The translations under genes were made by a program, and so were the position numbers. The notes under the pieces were generated by a model. The model was not told the DNA's origin and searched no databases. It saw only the letters and a list, made by a program, of their open reading frames with translations. A stretch of 64,000 bases of DNA from Candidatus Kapaibacterium sp. Lineage in GTDB: Bacteria; Bacteroidota; Ignavibacteria; Palsa-1295. Position 1 is the stretch's first letter; every line of letters begins with the position of its first letter. The stretch spans positions 878-64,877 of the forward strand of contig JADGPZ010000003.1 of NCBI GenBank assembly GCA_017882165.1. Reading direction: 5' to 3'. Positions 2,926 through 26,355 of this stretch are shown in pieces.

Positions 2926-3147
2926 TCAGAGCTTTTCCCACTCTTCGCGGGAGATATGCGCTTGGCGTAAGACCTTTTTCAACAGGTCAATCGCAATATC
3001 TCCGCGATGCGGATTAGGAATTTTGACTCTGCGAGAAACACCGATGTTCATGTAATCGTGATCACCTCCAGCACGAGGGCCATCAAACCCGGCGCGCCGG
3101 AGTGACGCGATCAAATCACGACGGCTAATGGGTCCGAAATGCGGCAT
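2926..3147 (-). CDS. hicA: HicA-family mRNA interferase toxin
   Basis: 73 aa. By my recollection the sequence resembles YcfA/HicA toxins. It overlaps the upstream hicB by 1 nt (TGATG). Confidence 0.6.
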   Translation of the reverse strand: MPHFGPISRRDLIASLRRAGFDGPRAGGDHDYMNIGVSRRVKIPNPHRGDIAIDLLKKVLRQAHISREEWEKL

Positions 3148-3386
3148 CAGGCTGGGACGTGCTCGTTGATGTCAATGCTATCGATAACCGGAATCTCAGC
3201 CCCATCGCGAAGACCGAGGATAAGCCACCCCTCGAGCGTACCTCGAAGGTCCTTCTCCGTATCCGCTAACGTCAACTCGTTCGCCCAGACTCCGTTGCAC
3301 TCAGGGATCTCTCCGTAAAATGACTTATCTTCTAAAATCTCGTATCTCGCGTGCCGCATCGCGGCGTCGATATATTCGGTCAGCAT
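3147..3386 (-). CDS. hicB: HicB-family antitoxin (UPF0150)
   Basis: 79 aa, ATG start, acidic. Translationally coupled to hicA, a typical type II TA organisation. Confidence 0.55.
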   Translation of the reverse strand: MLTEYIDAAMRHARYEILEDKSFYGEIPECNGVWANELTLADTEKDLRGTLEGWLILGLRDGAEIPVIDSIDINEHVPA

Positions 3387-3647: not shown

Positions 3648-4412
3648 ATGCTGAAGTTCACGGCCGTTTTTCTGCTTGGCGTAGCACTTCCGCATTTGAT
3701 TCATGCGCAGCAGCATCCGTTTAGGTCGGTTAGCTCTCAAGCCATAACCCTTTCCGAGCCTGAACTCGCAAGCATGGAGACAAAACAGGATCCGGGTACG
3801 GTTTTGGATAGCGGGCGATCTCTTGTGTTCTCAGCACGCACGGTCACCATTGTGATTCGCACCGGGCCGAGCGATGATATGCTCTCATATCGGATTCAGG
3901 GTCTACGAAATCCTACGCTCGACTTCCGACCTGGCGTCGAAGTGCACCTCCTCTTAGCAAACATGGACGATGACATGCACCACGATTTGCGTTTCGGCCG
4001 CAAGATGCACGCGTACATGCCCAATCCGGATACGGCTGGAACCGTTGGAACACACCGTCTTGCTCCTTCTCAGAGCGAGAAGTTCTCCGCTGAAGAAATC
4101 GTGTTCCGTTCGGTGGATACCGGGACGTTCAGCTACTTTTGCAGCGTCAAGGGGCATGCGGCTGGTGGCATGTCAGGGCATATTGTCATCGGAAGTAATC
4201 CTGCCTCTCTGGCGGCGATGCTAATTGGCCAATCTCCGATGAAGATGAGGACCACCGATGCTGGCTCACCGATGGACATGAAGCAAAGTGGCATGGAGAT
4301 GAAGTCTGGGACGATGATGGACTCAAGCAGGACGATGAAGCCGGGCATGAACATGGAACACTCCATGAACGGCCCGGCAAGTGGGGTCCTCCTCACGGAG
4401 CCGATGTCATAG
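3648..4412 (+). CDS. Secreted rusticyanin-like type-1 copper protein (cupredoxin) with a Met-rich C-terminal tail
   Basis: Signal peptide MLKFTAVFLLGVALPHLIHAQQ from ATG 3648. Cu-site motif YFCSVKGHAAGGMSGHIVIG (C-x4-H-x4-M; Cys codon 4140-4142) matches my recollection of rusticyanin (CQIPGHAATGMFGKIVV). Tail MKMRTTDAGSPMDMKQSGMEMKSGTMMDSSRTMKPGMNMEHSMNG resembles CopB/PcoB Cu(I)-binding Met motifs. The ORF ends at TAG 4410-4412, in frame with the next ORF. Confidence 0.7.
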   Translation: MLKFTAVFLLGVALPHLIHAQQHPFRSVSSQAITLSEPELASMETKQDPGTVLDSGRSLVFSARTVTIVIRTGPSDDMLSYRIQGLRNPTLDFRPGVEVHLLLANMDDDMHHDLRFGRKMHAYMPNPDTAGTVGTHRLAPSQSEKFSAEEIVFRSVDTGTFSYFCSVKGHAAGGMSGHIVIGSNPASLAAMLIGQSPMKMRTTDAGSPMDMKQSGMEMKSGTMMDSSRTMKPGMNMEHSMNGPASGVLLTEPMS

Positions 4413-4463
4413 GAGGGCTCTGGGACAAGTTGGCTTCCCGCATCCTCGCCGGTCTATGCGTCA

Positions 4464-5543
4464 ATGTACGAGAGTAATGGCTGGATGTCCATGCTGCACG
4501 GATCGATAATGCCGCGATTCGATCATCAGGGCGGGCCACGCGGCGGAGGTAAGTTTGATGCGCCGAATTGGATCATGGGGATGCTGAGCCATGACATCGG
4601 GAGTGACGGTCGCCTCACCTTCCGAGGAATGTTCAGTCTTGAGCCGTTAACCGAGGGCAGTTGTTATCCGATGCTGTTTCAAACGGGAGATACCTGGCAG
4701 GGTCAGCCCCTGATTGATTACAAAGATCCTCACAATCTCTTTAGCGAACTATCGGCAACGTACAGCCAACGATTGGCCGACCACTCATCGGCCTTCCTTT
4801 ACATCGGCTACCCGGGCGAACCAGCGCTTGGCCCCTCGGTCTTCATGCACCGACCGAGCGCGATGTCGAATCCCGATGCGCCGATCAGCCATGATTGGAT
4901 GGCCGGGACGCACATTACATTCGGAGTCGCGACTGTTGGCGTCAGCCTCGGTAATTGGAAATTGGAAGGGAGTGCGTTCAACGGAAGTGCGCCCCAGAGT
5001 CTGTATGGCTTCGATAAGCCGACGATCAATTCCTACAGTGGCCGGCTGTCGTTCAATCCGACTAACGAACTTTCCTTTCAGATATCCAGTGGACACATCA
5101 CAAATCCCGGAGGCGATAGCGTCGATCTCATCCGCTCCACCGCGTCGGCCATGTACACAAAGAATTTTGGTGACGGTTCGTGGTGGGCAACGACACTCTG
5201 TTGGGGTGAAAATCATGAGATACATTTCGCGAAGGAAGAAGCTCTCCTTCTCGAGTCGCAATACACGATTGAGGACTACAGTTTCTTTGGCCGAACCGTT
5301 TACGTTCAAAAGTCGGATGTTGAACTGGCATTCTCAGATAGCAGAACGCAACTCCATGATCTATCTGATGCAGCCATCGGGTTAACCCGGACCCTCTTCG
5401 ATCTTGCTGGAATGGAAGCTGGGATTGGCGCCCAGATTTCATATCATTTTGTACCAGAGTCCTTGCGTCCCCTCTACTCTGCTCATCCGGTTTCCTTTGA
5501 GCTATTCTTTGAAGTTCACTCTACCATCATGTCCGGAATGTGA
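4464..5543 (+). CDS. Putative outer-membrane beta-barrel protein (CopB-like?) without its own signal peptide; likely the C-terminal continuation of the upstream cupredoxin through an in-frame TAG
   Basis: 359 aa with an alternating amphipathic beta-strand pattern. N-terminus MYESNGWMSMLHG has no signal peptide. Same reading frame as 3648..4412, separated only by TAG 4410-4412. Confidence 0.45.
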   Translation: MYESNGWMSMLHGSIMPRFDHQGGPRGGGKFDAPNWIMGMLSHDIGSDGRLTFRGMFSLEPLTEGSCYPMLFQTGDTWQGQPLIDYKDPHNLFSELSATYSQRLADHSSAFLYIGYPGEPALGPSVFMHRPSAMSNPDAPISHDWMAGTHITFGVATVGVSLGNWKLEGSAFNGSAPQSLYGFDKPTINSYSGRLSFNPTNELSFQISSGHITNPGGDSVDLIRSTASAMYTKNFGDGSWWATTLCWGENHEIHFAKEEALLLESQYTIEDYSFFGRTVYVQKSDVELAFSDSRTQLHDLSDAAIGLTRTLFDLAGMEAGIGAQISYHFVPESLRPLYSAHPVSFELFFEVHSTIMSGM

Positions 5544-5799
5544 GTGGACTCCTTTGGGAAGTGTTTTGCCCGATAGCAGCTTCGGACAGCCAAGCTGGGA
5601 TTGCGGTCAACGCCACAGTGGTGTAGCGAGGTCAACCGGCGCGCAGATTACGAAGCCGCATAGGATCAGAGCAAGCGCCTTGACCCCCGAACGCCAGCGG
5701 TTGTTCGGGATGTTCAGATTCAACATATTAGTCGTGGCCTCTGGCCCGACCGAATTGTCACGGACGTTCTGGTTATCTCCGCGCGTGGCTTCCGTCAAA

Positions 5800-5930
5800 C
5801 CCCTCGCTTTTTCGGTCGGGCCAGAGTCACCGACCTACGCGTCTCGCTGGGCCGGGAAACCCGGCCACTACAGTTTGGCATTTCGTGTGCTGTGTTATGG
5901 TGTGGTTAGGGGCACCAATTAGCTCATTGA
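5800..5930. repeat. Hairpin-rich intergenic repeat element (includes ggccgggaaacccggcc 5849-5873)
   Basis: Shares gggccgggaaacccgg.ctaca with 11990-12014, followed by a similar gtgtt..ggttaggggcacc tract. Confidence 0.4.
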
Positions 5931-6255
5931 CAATGGATTCTGGGCGATTCATGAAAGAGACCGGCTCAATTGGCGAAATCCGTTCGTTTTGGGATATGAA
6001 AAGAACAAACACACGAAGCCGGATTTTCTTCCGGATGTGAAGATGCGGTGCCGTTAACTTTTCTTACGTTATCGTAAAGATAGCTAACGGTCGAAGCATG
6101 ACGCTCGCTGACTAAAGCGCGGAAGGCTTGCTCGGCAGCGCAGCCTTTCTCATACAACGGGATTGGCACAGAGACTGCTACTGTTCTTCCGGTTCGTCAA
6201 TCGGTTGAGTTGAGACACTCTCCCGCTAATCCGAAAAACGATAATAAAAGGAGCC

Positions 6256-7557
6256 GTGCGCATCAGCATGATTCGGAATAATTTTATCTTCGCCGCAGCA
6301 ATCGCGGTCACAGTCCTCGCCACAAACGGACAGTCCGCTCGGGCAAATCCGCTCTTTGCGCGGCAGTACAACACGTCGTGCTTCACGTGCCACACCTCTC
6401 CCCCGCTGCTCAATGAGTACGGCCGCCGGTTTCAGGCGAACGGCTACCAATTGCCGACGACGAGTGATAACATGGCGCAGGCAGCGCGGTCGGTGTTTCC
6501 GCTCGGACTTGTGGTGACGCCCATGGTGATGCACTCGCAGGTCCATGACAATCTCGCGGACAGCGCGATTTCGAGTTCGACCACGATTACCGGAATCATG
6601 ATGCGGTTCTTTACATCGGCATCGCTCGGGCAGCACTTCTCGTATTATGCCGGCATCCCGGTGACGGTCGCGAATGGCGAGACGAGCGTCGAGATCGAGA
6701 CGATCCATCTGCTCTACACCGATGTGCTCGGCGATGGACGCGGCGCGCTCAATTTCCAGATGGGCAAATTCCTGCTCTTCGCTCCGTTCACGCCGATGTT
6801 CTTGCTTTCCGGCGACGACCCGATCGTGTACAACGCCATGCACTACAAACCCATCGGCGAGAAGTTCGCTGCGAACGATATGAGCCTGACGAACCCGATG
6901 TTCGGCGCGAGCGCCTTCGGAACGCTCTATGGCATCGGACAGGGACTCCGCTGGCAAGTTGGAATGGTCGGCGGCAACAACAGCGACGTCGATCTCTCGA
7001 CCGCGCGCGCATTCTTCGGCTCGCTCGATCAAACCGTATTCTTCCACAATGCCCCTGCCCGATTTGGTGGCTTTTACTTCACAGGTTATCAGGATCTTTC
7101 GAGTTCGGAACCGGGGACATCAACCGCGATGGCAGGTATGCCTGGCATGGGAGGCAGTTCCGGCACGGGGCTTCTCAACCCGTGGCACAACAACGTAACG
7201 CGATTCGGCGGCGACTTGGAAATATACGACCCGTGGACCAAGCGGTTTGACTTCTTTGCGCAGTACATGGCGTGCGTGGACGACAACGTCGATAGCCTCG
7301 GGACGTCTTACAAAATGAGAGGCGGGTTCTTCGGCGTCAATGTGATTCTCATGCCGGAGAAACTCTACGCCTACGCCAGATACGATTGGATGCAGCGACT
7401 CACATATAAGAACGACCTTAGCGCCATTGATGTGGGCGTGCGATACCACGTCCTTCCGAACGTCGTCGTGACCGGCGGCGCGACGATCGCCAAAGAGGTA
7501 TCACTCATCGACCAGACGACGACATCCATTCGCGGCGGATTTCTTTTCGGATTCTAA
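6256..7557 (+). CDS. Cyc2-like fused monoheme cytochrome c / outer-membrane porin (candidate Fe(II) oxidase or extracellular electron-transfer protein)
   Basis: Signal peptide, then a single CxxCH (NPLFARQYNTSCFTCHTSPP) within ~25 aa of the mature N-terminus. The remaining ~380 aa are beta-strand-rich and end in GGFLFGF (C-terminal Phe of OM barrels). GTG 6256 or ATG 6268 start. Confidence 0.6.
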   Translation: MRISMIRNNFIFAAAIAVTVLATNGQSARANPLFARQYNTSCFTCHTSPPLLNEYGRRFQANGYQLPTTSDNMAQAARSVFPLGLVVTPMVMHSQVHDNLADSAISSSTTITGIMMRFFTSASLGQHFSYYAGIPVTVANGETSVEIETIHLLYTDVLGDGRGALNFQMGKFLLFAPFTPMFLLSGDDPIVYNAMHYKPIGEKFAANDMSLTNPMFGASAFGTLYGIGQGLRWQVGMVGGNNSDVDLSTARAFFGSLDQTVFFHNAPARFGGFYFTGYQDLSSSEPGTSTAMAGMPGMGGSSGTGLLNPWHNNVTRFGGDLEIYDPWTKRFDFFAQYMACVDDNVDSLGTSYKMRGGFFGVNVILMPEKLYAYARYDWMQRLTYKNDLSAIDVGVRYHVLPNVVVTGGATIAKEVSLIDQTTTSIRGGFLFGF

Positions 7558-7569
7558 CCAACGCAGATC

Positions 7570-8349
7570 ATGATTCTCCAATCCATTACCACCATCTGCG
7601 CGATCGGCGTCATTGCCGGTAGTTCGCTTACACTCGATCGGCCCAGCGCCGGATCGGATACGCCGGGCGCAGCTTCCGTCCCATCCGAGATGATCGCACG
7701 CGGCAAGACGGTCTTTGACATCGGCTGCTCGCCGTGCCATGGACTCGAAGGAGCGGGCGATGGCCCGCTCTCCGCCAATTTCCGGACACGCCCGCGCGAT
7801 CTCACGAAGGGTGTATACAAGAGCAGGTCCACGGCAAGCGGCCAGCTCCCCACCGATGATGACATCGACCGCGCAATCAGCGCAGGTATTCACACCAGCA
7901 CGATGCCGCCGTATCTCAAGATGTCGCCGGATGACCGCGCCGCAGTGGTGCAATACCTCAAGACGCTCGCCGTGCGCTTTACGGATTCGACCGAGTACCC
8001 GCTGGAAGTCCTCACGTTCAACCAACCGATTCCGGCAACTCCGCAGAGTATTGCGCTGGGTCGCGCAGCCTATATAAAGATGCAGTGCGATAACTGCCAC
8101 GGTGCATTTGGCAAAGGCGATGGCGTGTCATCAGAACTTCAGCACGATGATTTCGGCAACTACGTCCACACCACGGATCTCACGAACGCTTCCGATTTCA
8201 AATTCGCCCAGTCGGCGCAAGATGTCTATCGCATCTTCTCGACCGGCATGAACGGCTCACCGATGCCCTCCTATGCCGGGACGCTTCAGGACTCCGACCG
8301 CTGGCATCTCGCGAACTACGTGTGGGGTTTGCACGGTGGCGAGCGGTGA
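7570..8349 (+). CDS. Diheme c-type cytochrome (class I, c4/Cyc1-like), periplasmic
   Basis: Two CxxCH motifs (GCSPCHG and CDNCHGAFG) with Met candidates as sixth ligands, N-terminal signal/TM. Lies 12 nt downstream of the Cyc2-like gene. Confidence 0.7.
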   Translation: MILQSITTICAIGVIAGSSLTLDRPSAGSDTPGAASVPSEMIARGKTVFDIGCSPCHGLEGAGDGPLSANFRTRPRDLTKGVYKSRSTASGQLPTDDDIDRAISAGIHTSTMPPYLKMSPDDRAAVVQYLKTLAVRFTDSTEYPLEVLTFNQPIPATPQSIALGRAAYIKMQCDNCHGAFGKGDGVSSELQHDDFGNYVHTTDLTNASDFKFAQSAQDVYRIFSTGMNGSPMPSYAGTLQDSDRWHLANYVWGLHGGER

Positions 8350-8419: not shown

Positions 8420-8680
8420 ATGGCAATCTATTTTACTCGTCACGCTCGGCAACGGCTGAAACTCTATCGGATCGACAGGAAAGCAGTTGAAGACGTTCTG
8501 ACCGACATCCGAGCCGATGAGGAGCCTATTGGCGAGAACCGGGAATTTGTCGCGGAGGCCTTTGTTCAAACCATCGGGTATCCGCTCAAGATCGCCTACA
8601 TTCGCGAAGTCGCTCGGGTGGTCGTCAAAACGCTGTATCCACTCGATAGAAAGACGAAATATGAAGATATCGTACGATAA
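8420..8680 (+). CDS. DUF4258-family protein (putative toxin of a TA-like pair)
   Basis: 86 aa. Overlaps the DUF2283 gene by 20 nt. DUF4258/DUF2283 pairing is recurrent by my recollection. Confidence 0.5.
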   Translation: MAIYFTRHARQRLKLYRIDRKAVEDVLTDIRADEEPIGENREFVAEAFVQTIGYPLKIAYIREVARVVVKTLYPLDRKTKYEDIVR

Positions 8681-8876
8681 AGAAGCAGACGCCGCTTATA
8701 TCCAGCTTTCGGATGAACAACCCGTGGCCGCCATCGAGGCCGGTGACGGCATAAACATTGACCTCACGGCCGACAAACGAATCGTCGGAATTGAAATTCT
8801 TGACGCTTCCAAAAAACTCTCGATCGACACACTCTACAAGTACGAGGTCGAGCAGGATGAGTTTGTAGGAGTGTAA
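8661..8876 (+). CDS. DUF2283-family protein (putative antitoxin partner)
   Basis: N-terminus MKISYDKEADAAYIQLSDE matches the DUF2283 signature (MKI.YD.EADA.YI.L). ATG at 8661. Confidence 0.55.
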   Translation: MKISYDKEADAAYIQLSDEQPVAAIEAGDGINIDLTADKRIVGIEILDASKKLSIDTLYKYEVEQDEFVGV

Positions 8877-12384: not shown

Positions 12385-13704
<1,320 letters not shown>

Positions 13705-16382: not shown

Positions 16383-18200
16383 ATGATGACCGTACACAGA
16401 AGACTTGTCCTCGCCATCATCCTTGCCTTTGCATATTGGATGCCCCACTCGGCATTTGCCCAAATCTCCATGACGTCAGCGGTGCAAGTCAGTACGGCTT
16501 TAGGCGCTCACTCCCCTGCCATGCACGTGGGCCGCGATGGCGCTGTATACGTGAGTTGGTTTCAGGCGAACGCCGATATTTATTTCAGTCGCTCGACCGA
16601 TCAGGGGCAAACGTTTGCGACGCCGGTTCGCGTCTGCAGACAGGTCACGACAAACCAGTACACCTCTCTCTTGCAGCGGGCACCGGAGTTTGCGATCGAC
16701 ACCAAAGGCGTTATTCATCTTGTCTGGACGGAAGCGCGCGTGACGAGTGCGAGTGACGTGTGGTATGTGCATTCGACCGATAGCGGCAAGACCTGGACGC
16801 CGCCACTCTCCATCATGGACCCCGGCGATTCCGCAAACTATTCGCAGGACTTCTCGGCCATTGCGTGCGACTCCTCGGACAATCTTTACGTCTCCTTTCT
16901 CGACAATCGGTACATCATGGCCAAAACGGGCAAGCATTACCGGATGCACATCGAGCGCTCGACGAATGGCGGCCAAACGTGGTCGTTACCGGTCATCGCG
17001 GATAAGCTGCCGGCTGACACCAGCGGCACATGCGAGTGCTGCCGGCAGGATATTGCCGCATCTCCAGAGGGCCACGTCTATATTGCGTTTCGCACAAATA
17101 TGACCACGCCAACCGGCGATAAGCGCGACATCTTCATCTGCCGCTCGTGGGATGGGGGCCGGACTTTCGACAGCTCCATTCGCTGCCAACTCGGCGGTTG
17201 GACGCTCGACGCGTGCCCGACGAAAGGACCGCACATTTCTCTCGACTTGAGCGAGAATCTCTTCATCGCCTGGAATGACGCTCGCGACGATATGGGAAAG
17301 CTCGTGGCATACTTCGACATGCTTCCGAAAGGCTGGAACTCAGTGTTGCCTAACTACTCTATCTCCAATAGCAACTCGCAGACAGGTCACTGGCCATACG
17401 TAGCCGTTAGTCCGACCGGACTCATCGCATACGCCTACATGCCAGGCGAGAGCCTCGGCGGACCCATCCAATTCACCTACTCATCCGACGGCGGGAACAC
17501 CTGGAACCAGTCGCGCGCGCTGCCCGGGTCGGCCGGAGACAATCAGTCGCTTCCGGAGCTTGCCTTCGACGCACGCGGCCATGTCTATGCCGTTTGGCAG
17601 GATGGCGCTGCGAATGGGATCATGTGCTCGGCAATCACTGGTCTAAATATTGCGGTTGCACCTACGAAGGTCGGACTCCCACCATTATTTTACAACATTG
17701 GTCCGATTGTGCAGCTATACTGGCTCGGCCAGTCCAAACTTCGCCTATTCACTTGGTACAGAGTGATTGTCAGCAGTGGCGGCGCTGTTGTATTCGACAG
17801 CACTGTCCGGGATACCTCTGTGACGCTTCTGACGCTTAGTCCTGGCAACTACAATTACACGATTATAGCCCATACCGTTGTCGACTCAAGCGTCGCCTCT
17901 TCGTCATTTCGTGTCGGAGCGCTCGGCGTGAATCCCGGCGAACAATACCATCCGGTCTCGATTGCCTATCCAAATCCAGCACGTTCGGGAATGGTAACCG
18001 TGTCGCTGCCGGACGCTAAGAACATTGACGTTAGTGTCGCTATCTCCGACGGCTCGGGTAGGATCGTTCGCAATATTACTTCAGCAATTTCTGATGGCGA
18101 ACTTGTACTCAATTTGCAGAGCCTTGCGAGCGGGACTTACCAGATCCAGATTACCCAGGGTGCGAATCGCTGGAATGTACCAATCATTCTCAATAACTAA
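16383..18200 (+). CDS. Secreted BNR/Asp-box repeat (sialidase-like beta-propeller) protein with a T9SS C-terminal sorting domain
   Basis: Signal peptide. Five S-x-D-x-G-x-T-W/F Asp boxes (STDQGQTF, STDSGKTW, STNGGQTW, SWDGGRTF, SSDGGNTW). C-terminal ~80 aa begins YPNPA..., typical of Por/T9SS CTDs. Confidence 0.7.
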   Translation: MMTVHRRLVLAIILAFAYWMPHSAFAQISMTSAVQVSTALGAHSPAMHVGRDGAVYVSWFQANADIYFSRSTDQGQTFATPVRVCRQVTTNQYTSLLQRAPEFAIDTKGVIHLVWTEARVTSASDVWYVHSTDSGKTWTPPLSIMDPGDSANYSQDFSAIACDSSDNLYVSFLDNRYIMAKTGKHYRMHIERSTNGGQTWSLPVIADKLPADTSGTCECCRQDIAASPEGHVYIAFRTNMTTPTGDKRDIFICRSWDGGRTFDSSIRCQLGGWTLDACPTKGPHISLDLSENLFIAWNDARDDMGKLVAYFDMLPKGWNSVLPNYSISNSNSQTGHWPYVAVSPTGLIAYAYMPGESLGGPIQFTYSSDGGNTWNQSRALPGSAGDNQSLPELAFDARGHVYAVWQDGAANGIMCSAITGLNIAVAPTKVGLPPLFYNIGPIVQLYWLGQSKLRLFTWYRVIVSSGGAVVFDSTVRDTSVTLLTLSPGNYNYTIIAHTVVDSSVASSSFRVGALGVNPGEQYHPVSIAYPNPARSGMVTVSLPDAKNIDVSVAISDGSGRIVRNITSAISDGELVLNLQSLASGTYQIQITQGANRWNVPIILNN

Positions 18201-25627: not shown

Positions 25628-26172
25628 ATTGATTGGCCATTACAACGCACCAAAACGCCTTTCATTCCGCAGCCCGCGATATTCCCCCTCGTCGGCATTG
25701 CGAGAAGGCCGAAGGCCGGTCCCGAGGAAACGAGGGAAGCAATCCCGTCTCGTTAGCCTGAACTCCACGGACGACTACGACTGACCTGACTTAAGCCCTA
25801 CCTGCCACAAGGCAAATAGCTTTCATCTGCTTGTTTGTTCTTTCAAAGTTCATGAACCCGCTGTGGCGGGCCGCAAATGCGCTGATTTCGCGATCTTGCC
25901 TTTCACAGAGCAGTCAATTTCTCTCTTTTGAATTGTCATTTAATGAACGCCCTCTCCTTACCCATGAGCCGCGATGAATCAATTGTCAATGAGCAAATTG
26001 CCGGCACCTCTTGTCATCCTTCATCCATCAGCCTTCATCCTTTTCCCCAGAAATGGTGCCTATGACCATCACAACCAATATACGACACGAAAAACCCCGA
26101 TGCAAGCACTTTCGCAAAAATTCGTAAAATTGTTGCGACCGTGGATCATCACAGTGCCGGAGGCACGCAATG

Positions 26173-26355
26173 TTAGTAGCCGGTGACGCAAGTCACCGGG
26201 TGGCGAGCGGTATGAGATTCAGAGTCCCGAAAGGGACGGCATGTGTCGCTGGCAGAAGATTGCATGTCGTCACTCCGTGACTTTCCGGATCGCGCGGGCA
26301 TCGTTTCCGGTGACTCACGTCACCGGCTACCAACATTCCGTCCCGTTGGGACTCG
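26173..26355. repeat. Two tandem ~127-bp-spaced modules, each a perfect palindrome CCGGTGAC-N4-GTCACCGG (26180-26199; 26307-26326) followed by a GTCCC-N4-GGGAC hairpin (26224-26237; 26340-26352)
   Basis: Read directly; lies in a 0.9-kb non-coding stretch at the edge of the low-GC island. Confidence 0.5.

Follow-up and report, generated by a model that had tools for sequence, protein, structure and literature searches.

The 64,000-nt stretch analysed here (the window), from Candidatus Kapaibacterium sp. contig JADGPZ010000003.1, carries near its start a cluster of redox genes made up of a rusticyanin-like cupredoxin gene, a Cyc2-like gene (cyc2) and a diheme cytochrome gene. Coordinates count from the first letter of the window, and cyc2 and the other genes of the cluster all lie on the + strand. 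A first-pass annotation had read this cluster as a rus-operon-like iron oxidation module, and the list of open reading frames (ORFs), together with their translation, confirmed the four + strand ORFs that it had placed between 3648 and 8349. The locus is laid out as follows:

3648-4412, + strand: secreted cupredoxin, 254 aa when read from MLKF (open frame from 3558), terminated by an in-frame TAG
4410-4412, + strand: the in-frame TAG, which divides the cupredoxin-porin reading frame
4413-5543, + strand: the split gene's porin half, with a 359-aa ORF that starts at ATG 4464 and lacks a signal peptide
5544-6255, no strand: 712-bp gap without a convincing ORF, holding a long hairpin at 5731-5834
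6256-7557, + strand: predicted Cyc2-family fused monoheme cytochrome-porin, 433 aa from GTG 6256
7570-8349, + strand: predicted diheme class-I cytochrome c of the Kustc0457 type, 259 aa, with CSPCH and CDNCH

The locus is probably best explained as a real, lineage-variant Cyc2-type module that has come to lie beside an unrelated, decayed copper-homeostasis gene, and not as a conserved Acidithiobacillus-style operon. The module is the Cyc2-type gene and the diheme cytochrome gene (6256-8349), hereafter the Cyc2-diheme pair. The copper-homeostasis gene is the split cupredoxin-porin frame (3648-5543).

Cyc2 is operationally defined by a signal peptide, a single CXXCH with the motif AXPXFAR[Q/K][T/Y] just upstream of it, PXL about four residues downstream, and a length of at least 365 aa that includes a 16-strand porin structurally like OprO/OprP; the AXPXFAR[Q/K][T/Y] motif has been described as unique to Cyc2 (PMC8406198, Keffer et al. 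2021). The 433-aa protein has a signal peptide, one CXXCH only (NPLFARQYNTSCFTCH, in the context MRISMIRNNFIFAAAIAVTVLATNGQSARA / NPLFARQYNTSCFTCH) and a C-terminus that reads ...LFGF. All of the Cyc2 consensus elements are present in it, in the order A-N-P-L-F-A-R-Q-Y-NTS-CFTCH-TSP-P-L-L. The public call for this gene is a 429-aa product from ATG 6268.

These elements are strongly conserved. Residues C42, C45 and H46 are invariant in 30/30 family members, P50 and L52 are likewise invariant in the Cyc2-like family, and the motif residues that flank CXXCH (P-x-F-A...P-x-L-N) are invariant or near-invariant across 30 homologs of 30-72% identity. A family profile retrieved 3713 relatives at E <= 1e-3 among 1.84 billion representatives. 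Exactly one CXXCH was present in 125/125 full-length top representatives, and the P-x-F-A-[RH]-[QK]-[TYF] core in 85/125 of them, with the same motif-to-heme spacing as in the window. ANPLFARQY ends three residues ahead of the first Cys, a spacing that is identical in 78/78 distant representatives that have the motif.

Structure prediction gave a confident model of the C-terminal barrel as a 16-strand OprP-like porin ending in Phe. OprP (2o4v) is its top structural match and is also the template reported for Cyc2PV-1 (PMC8406198). The Cyc2 architecture that the first-pass annotation had proposed for this protein is thus upheld by the published motifs and by the modelled barrel. No Pfam or NCBIfam model matches the 433-aa protein, and cluster members of 10 distant representatives were labelled only 'hypothetical protein' or Nitrospiria, with no named Cyc2 among them. 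A PDB sequence search with the Cyc2-like profile returned nothing meaningful. To our knowledge there is no solved Cyc2 structure, and an empty PDB search was expected. By the published motif and fold criteria, the 433-aa protein is predicted to be a genuine Cyc2-family fused cytochrome-porin.

The protein encoded at 7570-8349 is secreted and contains two Pfam Cytochrom_C stretches (E 8.8e-23), with hemes at CSPCH and CDNCH. Its best PDB match, and its sole strong structural relative, is 6H5L chain B (E 1.1e-52, 182 bits, residues 36-254 against 2-218, 219 residues aligned). This chain is Kustc0457, a diheme subunit of the HAO-like nitrite reductase of Kuenenia, whose heme circuit it extends (PMC8042395). 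No cytochrome c4 entry is found among the 36 PDB matches of the diheme protein, even at E <= 10. The NCBIfam model for Leptospirillum cytochrome 579 gave 41 bits for the diheme protein and 38 bits for the monoheme protein of relatives, against a cut-off of 280, and we give this match little weight. The diheme cytochrome is therefore best classed, by its alignments, as a Kustc0457-type protein that would have a Cyc1-like role by position and is not a member of the c4/Cyc1 family. The earlier description of it as a periplasmic diheme class-I cytochrome encoded next to the Cyc2-like gene is upheld, and the linkage is tight; the likening to c4 and Cyc1 is not supported. Similar to Kustc0457, it has two class-I heme c domains, and Kustc0457 also acts as the electron-transfer partner of another redox protein. 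The two differ in that partner, which is a Cyc2-type porin-cytochrome in the window and an octaheme HAO for Kustc0457.

Close homologs of the 433-aa protein number 47 and come from Kapabacteria, Ignavibacteria-type and Kryptonia metagenome-assembled genomes (MAGs). Gene neighborhoods were counted over 32 non-redundant loci, each with a full-length Cyc2-like relative; where a locus of this or another comparison has to be named, it is numbered L001 and so on. In 31/32 loci a homolog of the diheme cytochrome lies directly downstream on the same strand, and a monoheme cytochrome c follows the diheme gene in 10/32. Rieske/cytochrome b genes are found within 8 kb in 5/32 loci and cbb3 oxidase genes within the same distance in 4/32; NirK-like genes occur in 2/32 and NosZ in 2/32. 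The rusticyanin-like cupredoxin occurs in 0/32 of these related Cyc2 loci. Of the rus-operon-like module, then, the Cyc2-diheme pair survives as a conserved unit, while the cupredoxin drops out entirely and an oxidase is only occasionally nearby. The Kryptonia loci contain only the Cyc2-like/diheme pair, and we therefore take this pair to be the core unit.

In the closest relative, GCA_030706365.1 (72% identity), the module likewise lies between aconitase and enolase. This shared position marks the pair as ancestral here and not recently acquired, and the proposal that the genes sit in an acquired accessory region does not apply to it. The Cyc2-diheme pair is conserved across Kapabacteria, Ignavibacteria and Kryptonia. 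The accepted route in neutrophilic iron oxidizers runs from Cyc2 to a periplasmic cytochrome and on to cbb3 or, in reverse, bc1 (PMC7029218). By analogy, the layout of the pair in its relatives fits this route. In Candidatus Kryptonium thompsonii (L027, 8001-12371) the pair adjoins phoU-pstB-pstA-pstC, on the opposite strand, and a peroxiredoxin gene; the phosphate-transport adjacency is curious given the OprP-like fold. A homolog of the beta-elimination lyases (tryptophanase/tyrosine phenol-lyase family) lies within 8 kb of the Cyc2-like gene in 7/32 loci, and in two of them (L003 5653-7038; L004 5628-6998) it stands between the Rieske/cytochrome b genes and the Cyc2 module.

A membrane-anchored protein of about 260 aa is encoded directly upstream of the Cyc2-like gene in 21/32 loci (for example L002 7189-8004, L001 9191-9976 and L004 7242-7982), and has no counterpart at the window locus. 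It possesses a C-terminal CarboxypepD_reg domain and the pattern H-N-x-H ... C-D-x(1-2)-H-x-W-M, which is invariant in 24/24 sequences. The Cu-site-like part has no PDB match; amicyanin was reached at E 0.13, and an hhalign comparison gave a probability of 3.7%, in the right register. The invariant pattern may represent a type-1-copper-like site, and the protein may be a new partner of Cyc2-type proteins. The remaining 11/32 loci, Kryptonia-type loci among them, are without it.

Most features of the 433-aa protein are shared with the characterized Cyc2 family (A. ferrooxidans Cyc2, Leptospirillum Cyt572, Mariprofundus Cyc2PV-1), including the signal peptide, the motif, the single CXXCH, PXL, a length of roughly 400-430 aa, the 16-strand-type barrel that best matches OprP, and a c-type cytochrome gene immediately downstream. 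However, the host is one of the non-phototrophic Kapabacteria/Ignavibacteria-type Bacteroidota, the partner cytochrome in the window comes from another diheme family, and relatives of the window add the upstream Cu-site-like/CarboxypepD_reg protein. A further difference is an extra MAGMPGMGG loop in the barrel, TSTAMAGMPGMGGSSG, encoded at about 7120-7170 (residues ~288-304). It is modelled with low confidence, and the window protein shares it with its two closest relatives alone. Copper-associated cupredoxins also have MPGM-type motifs, in their Met-rich tails; any copper link for the TSTAMAGMPGMGGSSG loop is speculative.

The cupredoxin at the 5' end of the locus resembles rusticyanin at its copper site. 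The segment YFCSVKGHAAGGMSGHIVIG has the spacing C-x4-H-x4-M, and the H/C/H/M ligands are kept in an alignment to PDB rusticyanin 2cak (E 1.1e-11 over residues 39-181). The first-pass annotation had already noted the spacing. When aligned to 2cak and 1gy1, MHHD pairs with GFGH[S/D] and CSVKGHAAGGM with CQIPGHAATGM. The position of Ser86, next to the first His ligand, is occupied by Asp in the window, like the S86D mutant sequence 1gy1; Ser86 has been linked to the acid stability and high potential of rusticyanin (as cited in PMC10654088). The NCBIfam rusticyanin model TIGR03095 was matched over positions 3-147 of 148 (E 2.6e-21), at 76.4 bits against a cut-off of 146.7 that was not reached. 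The cupredoxin domain spans residues ~40-181 and is followed by a 73-residue tail with 14 Met. It is as good a rusticyanin-like sequence as might be expected away from the acidophiles, and rusticyanin is its closest match in NCBIfam and the PDB, yet it would not qualify as rusticyanin proper because it falls below the equivalog cut-off, has Asp at Ser86 and carries the Met-rich tail. Similarity to rusticyanin (TIGR03095; 1RCY, 2CAK) therefore lies in the full-length domain alignment, the ligands, C-x4-H-x4-M and its GHAA.GM.G.IV context. The differences extend to family context: members of the window's family are N-terminal domains of porins or stand in copper-resistance islands.

The cupredoxin ORF and the 359-aa barrel ORF behind it share one reading frame, parted by the single TAG at 4410-4412, an arrangement that the earlier annotation had missed along with the 712-bp ORF-free stretch before cyc2. 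Across the stop, positions 4350-4520 translate as ...LTEPMS*EGSGTSWLPASSPVYASMYES. The 17 codons from the TAG to the next ATG encode EGSGTSWLPASSPVYAS, a motif that is near-invariant in homologs of the barrel ORF. The closest of these homologs (57-74% identity) are single proteins of 576-652 aa, built from a signal peptide, a rusticyanin-like cupredoxin, a Met-rich linker and a barrel, and the window cupredoxin is colinear with their N-terminal domains. Where the window has its stop, they have Q, K or M (codons CAG, AAG and ATG). Three further metagenome assemblies have this TAG too, and one of these represents a strain that is only 98.85% identical. Recoding of TAG was considered and rejected, as TAG is an ordinary stop that ends 8/30 confident genes of the window. 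On these comparisons, the 'rusticyanin' of the window would be the N-terminal half of a copper-handling porin fusion gene cut by a TAG.

The porin half is confidently predicted to have an OprP-like 16-strand-type barrel fold, and has no signal peptide if read from ATG 4464. It carries Cys and Ser at the near-invariant positions Gly84 and Pro370. In the strain comparison, the cupredoxin part differs by a single synonymous substitution and by no nonsynonymous one; for the barrel part the counts are 2 synonymous and 10 nonsynonymous. The porin half is probably decaying. Compared with locus L006, the window shows no differences over the 248 nt upstream of the cupredoxin, 8 differences in the last ~125 nt of the barrel ORF, and differences at 13/115 positions in 5544-5658. 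The divergence from L006 may reflect a boundary, left by recombination or an indel, where the inserted gene ends on its 3' side.

The barrel family to which the porin half belongs has more than 6620 detectable members, which are OprP-like porins without a Pfam model. Their N-terminal modules are Met-rich stretches, a heavy-metal-binding domain (HMBD, PF19335), or the cupredoxin seen here (13 of the top 120). We examined the neighborhoods of three fused homologs (L012 8001-9731, L013 8001-9851, L014 8001-9959). In two of the three (L012, L014) the fused gene is followed by a gene for a P-type ATPase with a CPH motif and a His-rich N-terminus, a combination that is the established signature of P1B-3 copper pumps. 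An HMA protein also follows one of these two ATPase-linked homologs, and the third fused homolog stands alone. A stand-alone 209-aa homolog of the cupredoxin is encoded within a copper-resistance island, together with genes for CsoR, ATPases, a multicopper oxidase, CopB and Csp. No Cyc2-like gene was found in the examined cupredoxin-porin and stand-alone homolog loci. When the Cyc2-like and the cupredoxin-linked barrels were compared profile to profile, the probability was 3%; as judged from their profiles, the two kinds of porin are analogous and not detectably homologous.

A precedent for such a cupredoxin is CopI, a protein with His-Cys-His-Met ligands whose Met-rich segments capture Cu(I) for oxidation and which serves in copper tolerance (PMC13308877). 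The likeness of the window cupredoxin to CopI, the periplasmic green cupredoxin of Rubrivivax gelatinosus, is one of features: both are single-domain cupredoxins with the same ligand set and flexible Met-rich segments, and homologs of the window protein also occur in copper-resistance gene clusters. However, the Met-rich part is a C-terminal linker to the porin here and an internal loop in CopI, and the window locus itself is without copper genes. Similar to PcoB/CopB, the porin family places an outer-membrane barrel after a Met-rich segment and is found in copper-resistance contexts. It differs in having no match to Pfam CopB (PF05275), a larger, OprP-like barrel, and the possibility of a cupredoxin or HMBD as N-terminal module. 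From the family's gene neighborhoods and the CopI precedent, we infer that the role of the cupredoxin-porin gene was copper handling at the cell envelope. The barrel family as a whole looks like an uncharacterized outer-membrane component of copper export. More remotely, the intact cupredoxin-porin fusions might parallel Cyc2 with a copper cofactor, as oxidases of Fe(II) or Cu(I) in the outer membrane.

The gap that separates the two units (5544-6255) is located where 21/32 related loci carry the upstream Cu-site-like/CarboxypepD_reg gene. No remnant of that gene was found in the gap, either by tblastn or by a hidden Markov model (HMM) search at maximal sensitivity. The gap has no Pfam or Rfam matches, and the small minus-strand ORFs within it match no family. 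Its hairpin (5731-5834) is a 24-nt inverted repeat, 88% complementary, with arms 56 nt apart, a folding energy of -52 kcal/mol and a fold z-score of -3.56. This hairpin is unique in the window, is not followed by a T-run and has no Rfam match.

The surroundings of the locus contain these further features:

362-2893: aconitase (flank)
2926-3386, - strand: HicA/HicB-like toxin-antitoxin pair (Pfam HicA_toxin, E 3.7e-8; UPF0150, E 1.3e-27)
8420-8876, + strand: small DUF4258-like/DUF2283 gene pair, 3' of the diheme gene (DUF2283, E 5e-17; DUF4258, E 0.008, weak)
12397-13704: enolase (flank)
16383-18200: Por_Secre_tail protein of the type IX secretion system (T9SS), by Pfam

The flanks consist of housekeeping genes and small toxin-antitoxin-like pairs, with a nitroreductase and an S41 peptidase among them. 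The HicA/HicB pair is missing from the syntenic relative L001. Both toxin-antitoxin-like pairs were present as the first-pass annotation had described them, as was the T9SS, represented by the Por_Secre_tail protein. It had also placed no terminal oxidase in the window, and this agrees with our homology search, which detected no homologs of cbb3 oxidase, Rieske protein or cytochrome b there. The remainder of the window is core chromosome, with PGK, ribosomal proteins, EF-Tu and capsule genes. Promoter scans (sigma-70, TAnnTTTG) gave matches no better than chance. At 26153-26199 (-), within a stretch of lower GC (0.485-0.51), there is a match to the Rfam small RNA Acido-Lenti-1, with 37.9 bits against a gathering score of 37.

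In the working model, electrons would enter at the outer membrane through the Cyc2-diheme pair, which is conserved in the lineage. The donor would be a soluble reductant, with Fe(II) the most plausible one; it would be oxidized at the heme that plugs the porin, and the electron would then pass to the periplasmic diheme cytochrome. From there it would go to respiratory enzymes encoded elsewhere, such as a cbb3 oxidase, a bc-type complex, NirK or NosZ, as found beside the module in relatives. The second unit would be a fusion of cupredoxin, Met-rich linker and porin from a copper-homeostasis family; it would have been inserted along with the HicAB pair and later interrupted by a nonsense mutation, the TAG at 4410-4412. 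The rusticyanin-like cupredoxin could still be made and exported on its own, with its Met-rich tail resembling that of CopI, and the porin fragment would be dead.

Several points weigh against this account. The strains differ by only 13 coding substitutions, most of them close together at the barrel ORF's 3' end, beside a divergent intergenic stretch, and the pattern could mark a recombination boundary instead of decay. What divergent, Cluster 3-type homologs of Cyc2 do is regarded as uncertain (PMC8406198). The lineages concerned are mainly known as heterotrophs, and Cyc2 homologs are also found in Fe(III)-reducing taxa. Furthermore, the usual upstream Cu-site-like gene is gone here and an intact, apparently constrained, co-oriented cupredoxin lies upstream; it could have been recruited to the Cyc2-diheme pair and so not be unrelated to it. 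The uncertainty over Cluster 3-type homologs is also what speaks for a second explanation, in which the pair is a redox module but no energy-conserving Fe(II) oxidase, serving instead in outward electron transfer to Fe(III) or humics, in Fe(II)/redox detoxification or in electron uptake for denitrification enzymes. The hosts of the homologs, Fe(III)-reducing Ignavibacteriaceae and generalist heterotrophic Ignavibacteriales, point the same way, as do the NirK-like and NosZ genes that stand beside the module in some loci, where cbb3 is not the only neighbor, and the Kuenenia homolog of the diheme protein, which feeds electrons to a reductive enzyme (PMC8042395). However, every biochemically tested member of the family oxidizes Fe(II) (A. 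ferrooxidans Cyc2, Leptospirillum Cyt572 and Cyc2PV-1), and a single heme in a narrow porin suits a soluble donor and not solid acceptors (PMC8406198). The cbb3 oxidase genes beside the module in four loci also argue against this explanation, which we consider unlikely while giving it some weight. At its most extreme, doubt about the 433-aa protein would make it a plain porin for anions or phosphate whose CXXCH arose by chance. Its best structural matches are indeed OprP and other general porins, and the Candidatus Kryptonium pair adjoins phoU-pstBAC. OprP similarity, however, is a published property of Cyc2 (PMC8406198), and nearly every locus pairs the gene with one for a c-type cytochrome. 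The heme motif and its flanking residues are invariant over the 30 members at 30-72% identity, and a single CXXCH recurs in all 125 distant full-length representatives. The objection fails on this invariance; we reject a coincidental CXXCH in an anion porin and regard the idea as wholly improbable.

The remaining explanation is the one closest to the first-pass annotation, a single integrated rus-like chain in which Cyc2 oxidizes Fe(II), the cupredoxin is a periplasmic branch-point carrier and the diheme cytochrome acts as Cyc1. Compared with the A. ferrooxidans rus operon (cyc2-cyc1-cup-coxBACD-rus), the window likewise has a Cyc2-type gene, a diheme cytochrome and a rusticyanin-like cupredoxin on one strand within 4.7 kb. 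The genes are adjacent and co-oriented, and the cupredoxin is the best available rusticyanin match, with four ligands and the C-x4-H-x4-M spacing. However, the window lacks oxidase genes, its gene order differs, its diheme cytochrome is not of the c4 type, and the 712-bp ORF-free gap with its strong hairpin parts the cupredoxin from cyc2. The cupredoxin stays below the rusticyanin cut-off with Asp at the Ser86 position, and its homologs are either porin-fused, beside copper ATPases in two of three cases, or in a copper-resistance island. It is a piece of such a porin fusion, whose family is associated with copper, and with no counterpart in any of the 32 related loci it is not a conserved member of a rus chain. 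In its strongest form, the integrated chain arose when the nonsense mutation freed the cupredoxin, which now replaces the usual upstream Cu-site-like protein. In favor of this form, 21/32 relatives have an H..H..C..H..M gene directly upstream that is gone here without remnant, and the cupredoxin part is without amino-acid change between the two strains when the barrel part has several. On the other side, the upstream Cu-site-like gene is missing from 11/32 loci, which shows that a copper partner can be dispensed with. An integrated rus-like chain is, in our judgement, distinctly unlikely. That the freed cupredoxin serves the Cyc2-diheme pair in place of the lost protein is a long shot at best; it has no parallel among the 32 related loci and hence no comparative support, and it is kept alive because the cupredoxin ORF is intact and co-oriented. 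We therefore retain the reading of a Cyc2-type module juxtaposed with a decayed copper-homeostasis gene as the probable one.

The description of the system as possibly undescribed needs to be narrowed. Cyc2 homologs of Ignavibacteriales/Ignavibacteriaceae MAGs had been reported earlier from FeGenie-type surveys, which treated them as uncertain (PMC8478452, PMC6344600, PMC13594681). In the literature searched, no paper linked Kapaibacter with cyc2. What appears to be new is the conserved operon of a Cu-site-like protein, a Cyc2-type porin-cytochrome, a Kustc0457-type diheme cytochrome and often a monoheme cytochrome. Its occasional operon linkage to bc, cbb3, NirK and NosZ genes also appears new, as does the recognition of the window's 'rusticyanin' as a fragment of a copper-associated porin fusion.

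Finally, these results bear on how such loci are read in other genomes. A 'rusticyanin' annotation beside cyc2 can be a copper-homeostasis gene, and the one found here points to a very large uncharacterized porin family that has N-terminal Met-rich, HMBD or cupredoxin modules and is linked to copper ATPases. If the freed cupredoxin did serve the pair, gene decay would have re-created an Acidithiobacillus-like chain from Cyc2 through cupredoxin to cytochrome in a Bacteroidota lineage. Iron oxidation by microbes is inferred from metagenomes mainly with Cyc2 as the genetic marker, and what its divergent homologs do is acknowledged to be uncertain. The module defined here offers a way to ask whether the widespread 'heterotrophs' Kapabacteria, Ignavibacteria and Kryptonia oxidize iron.

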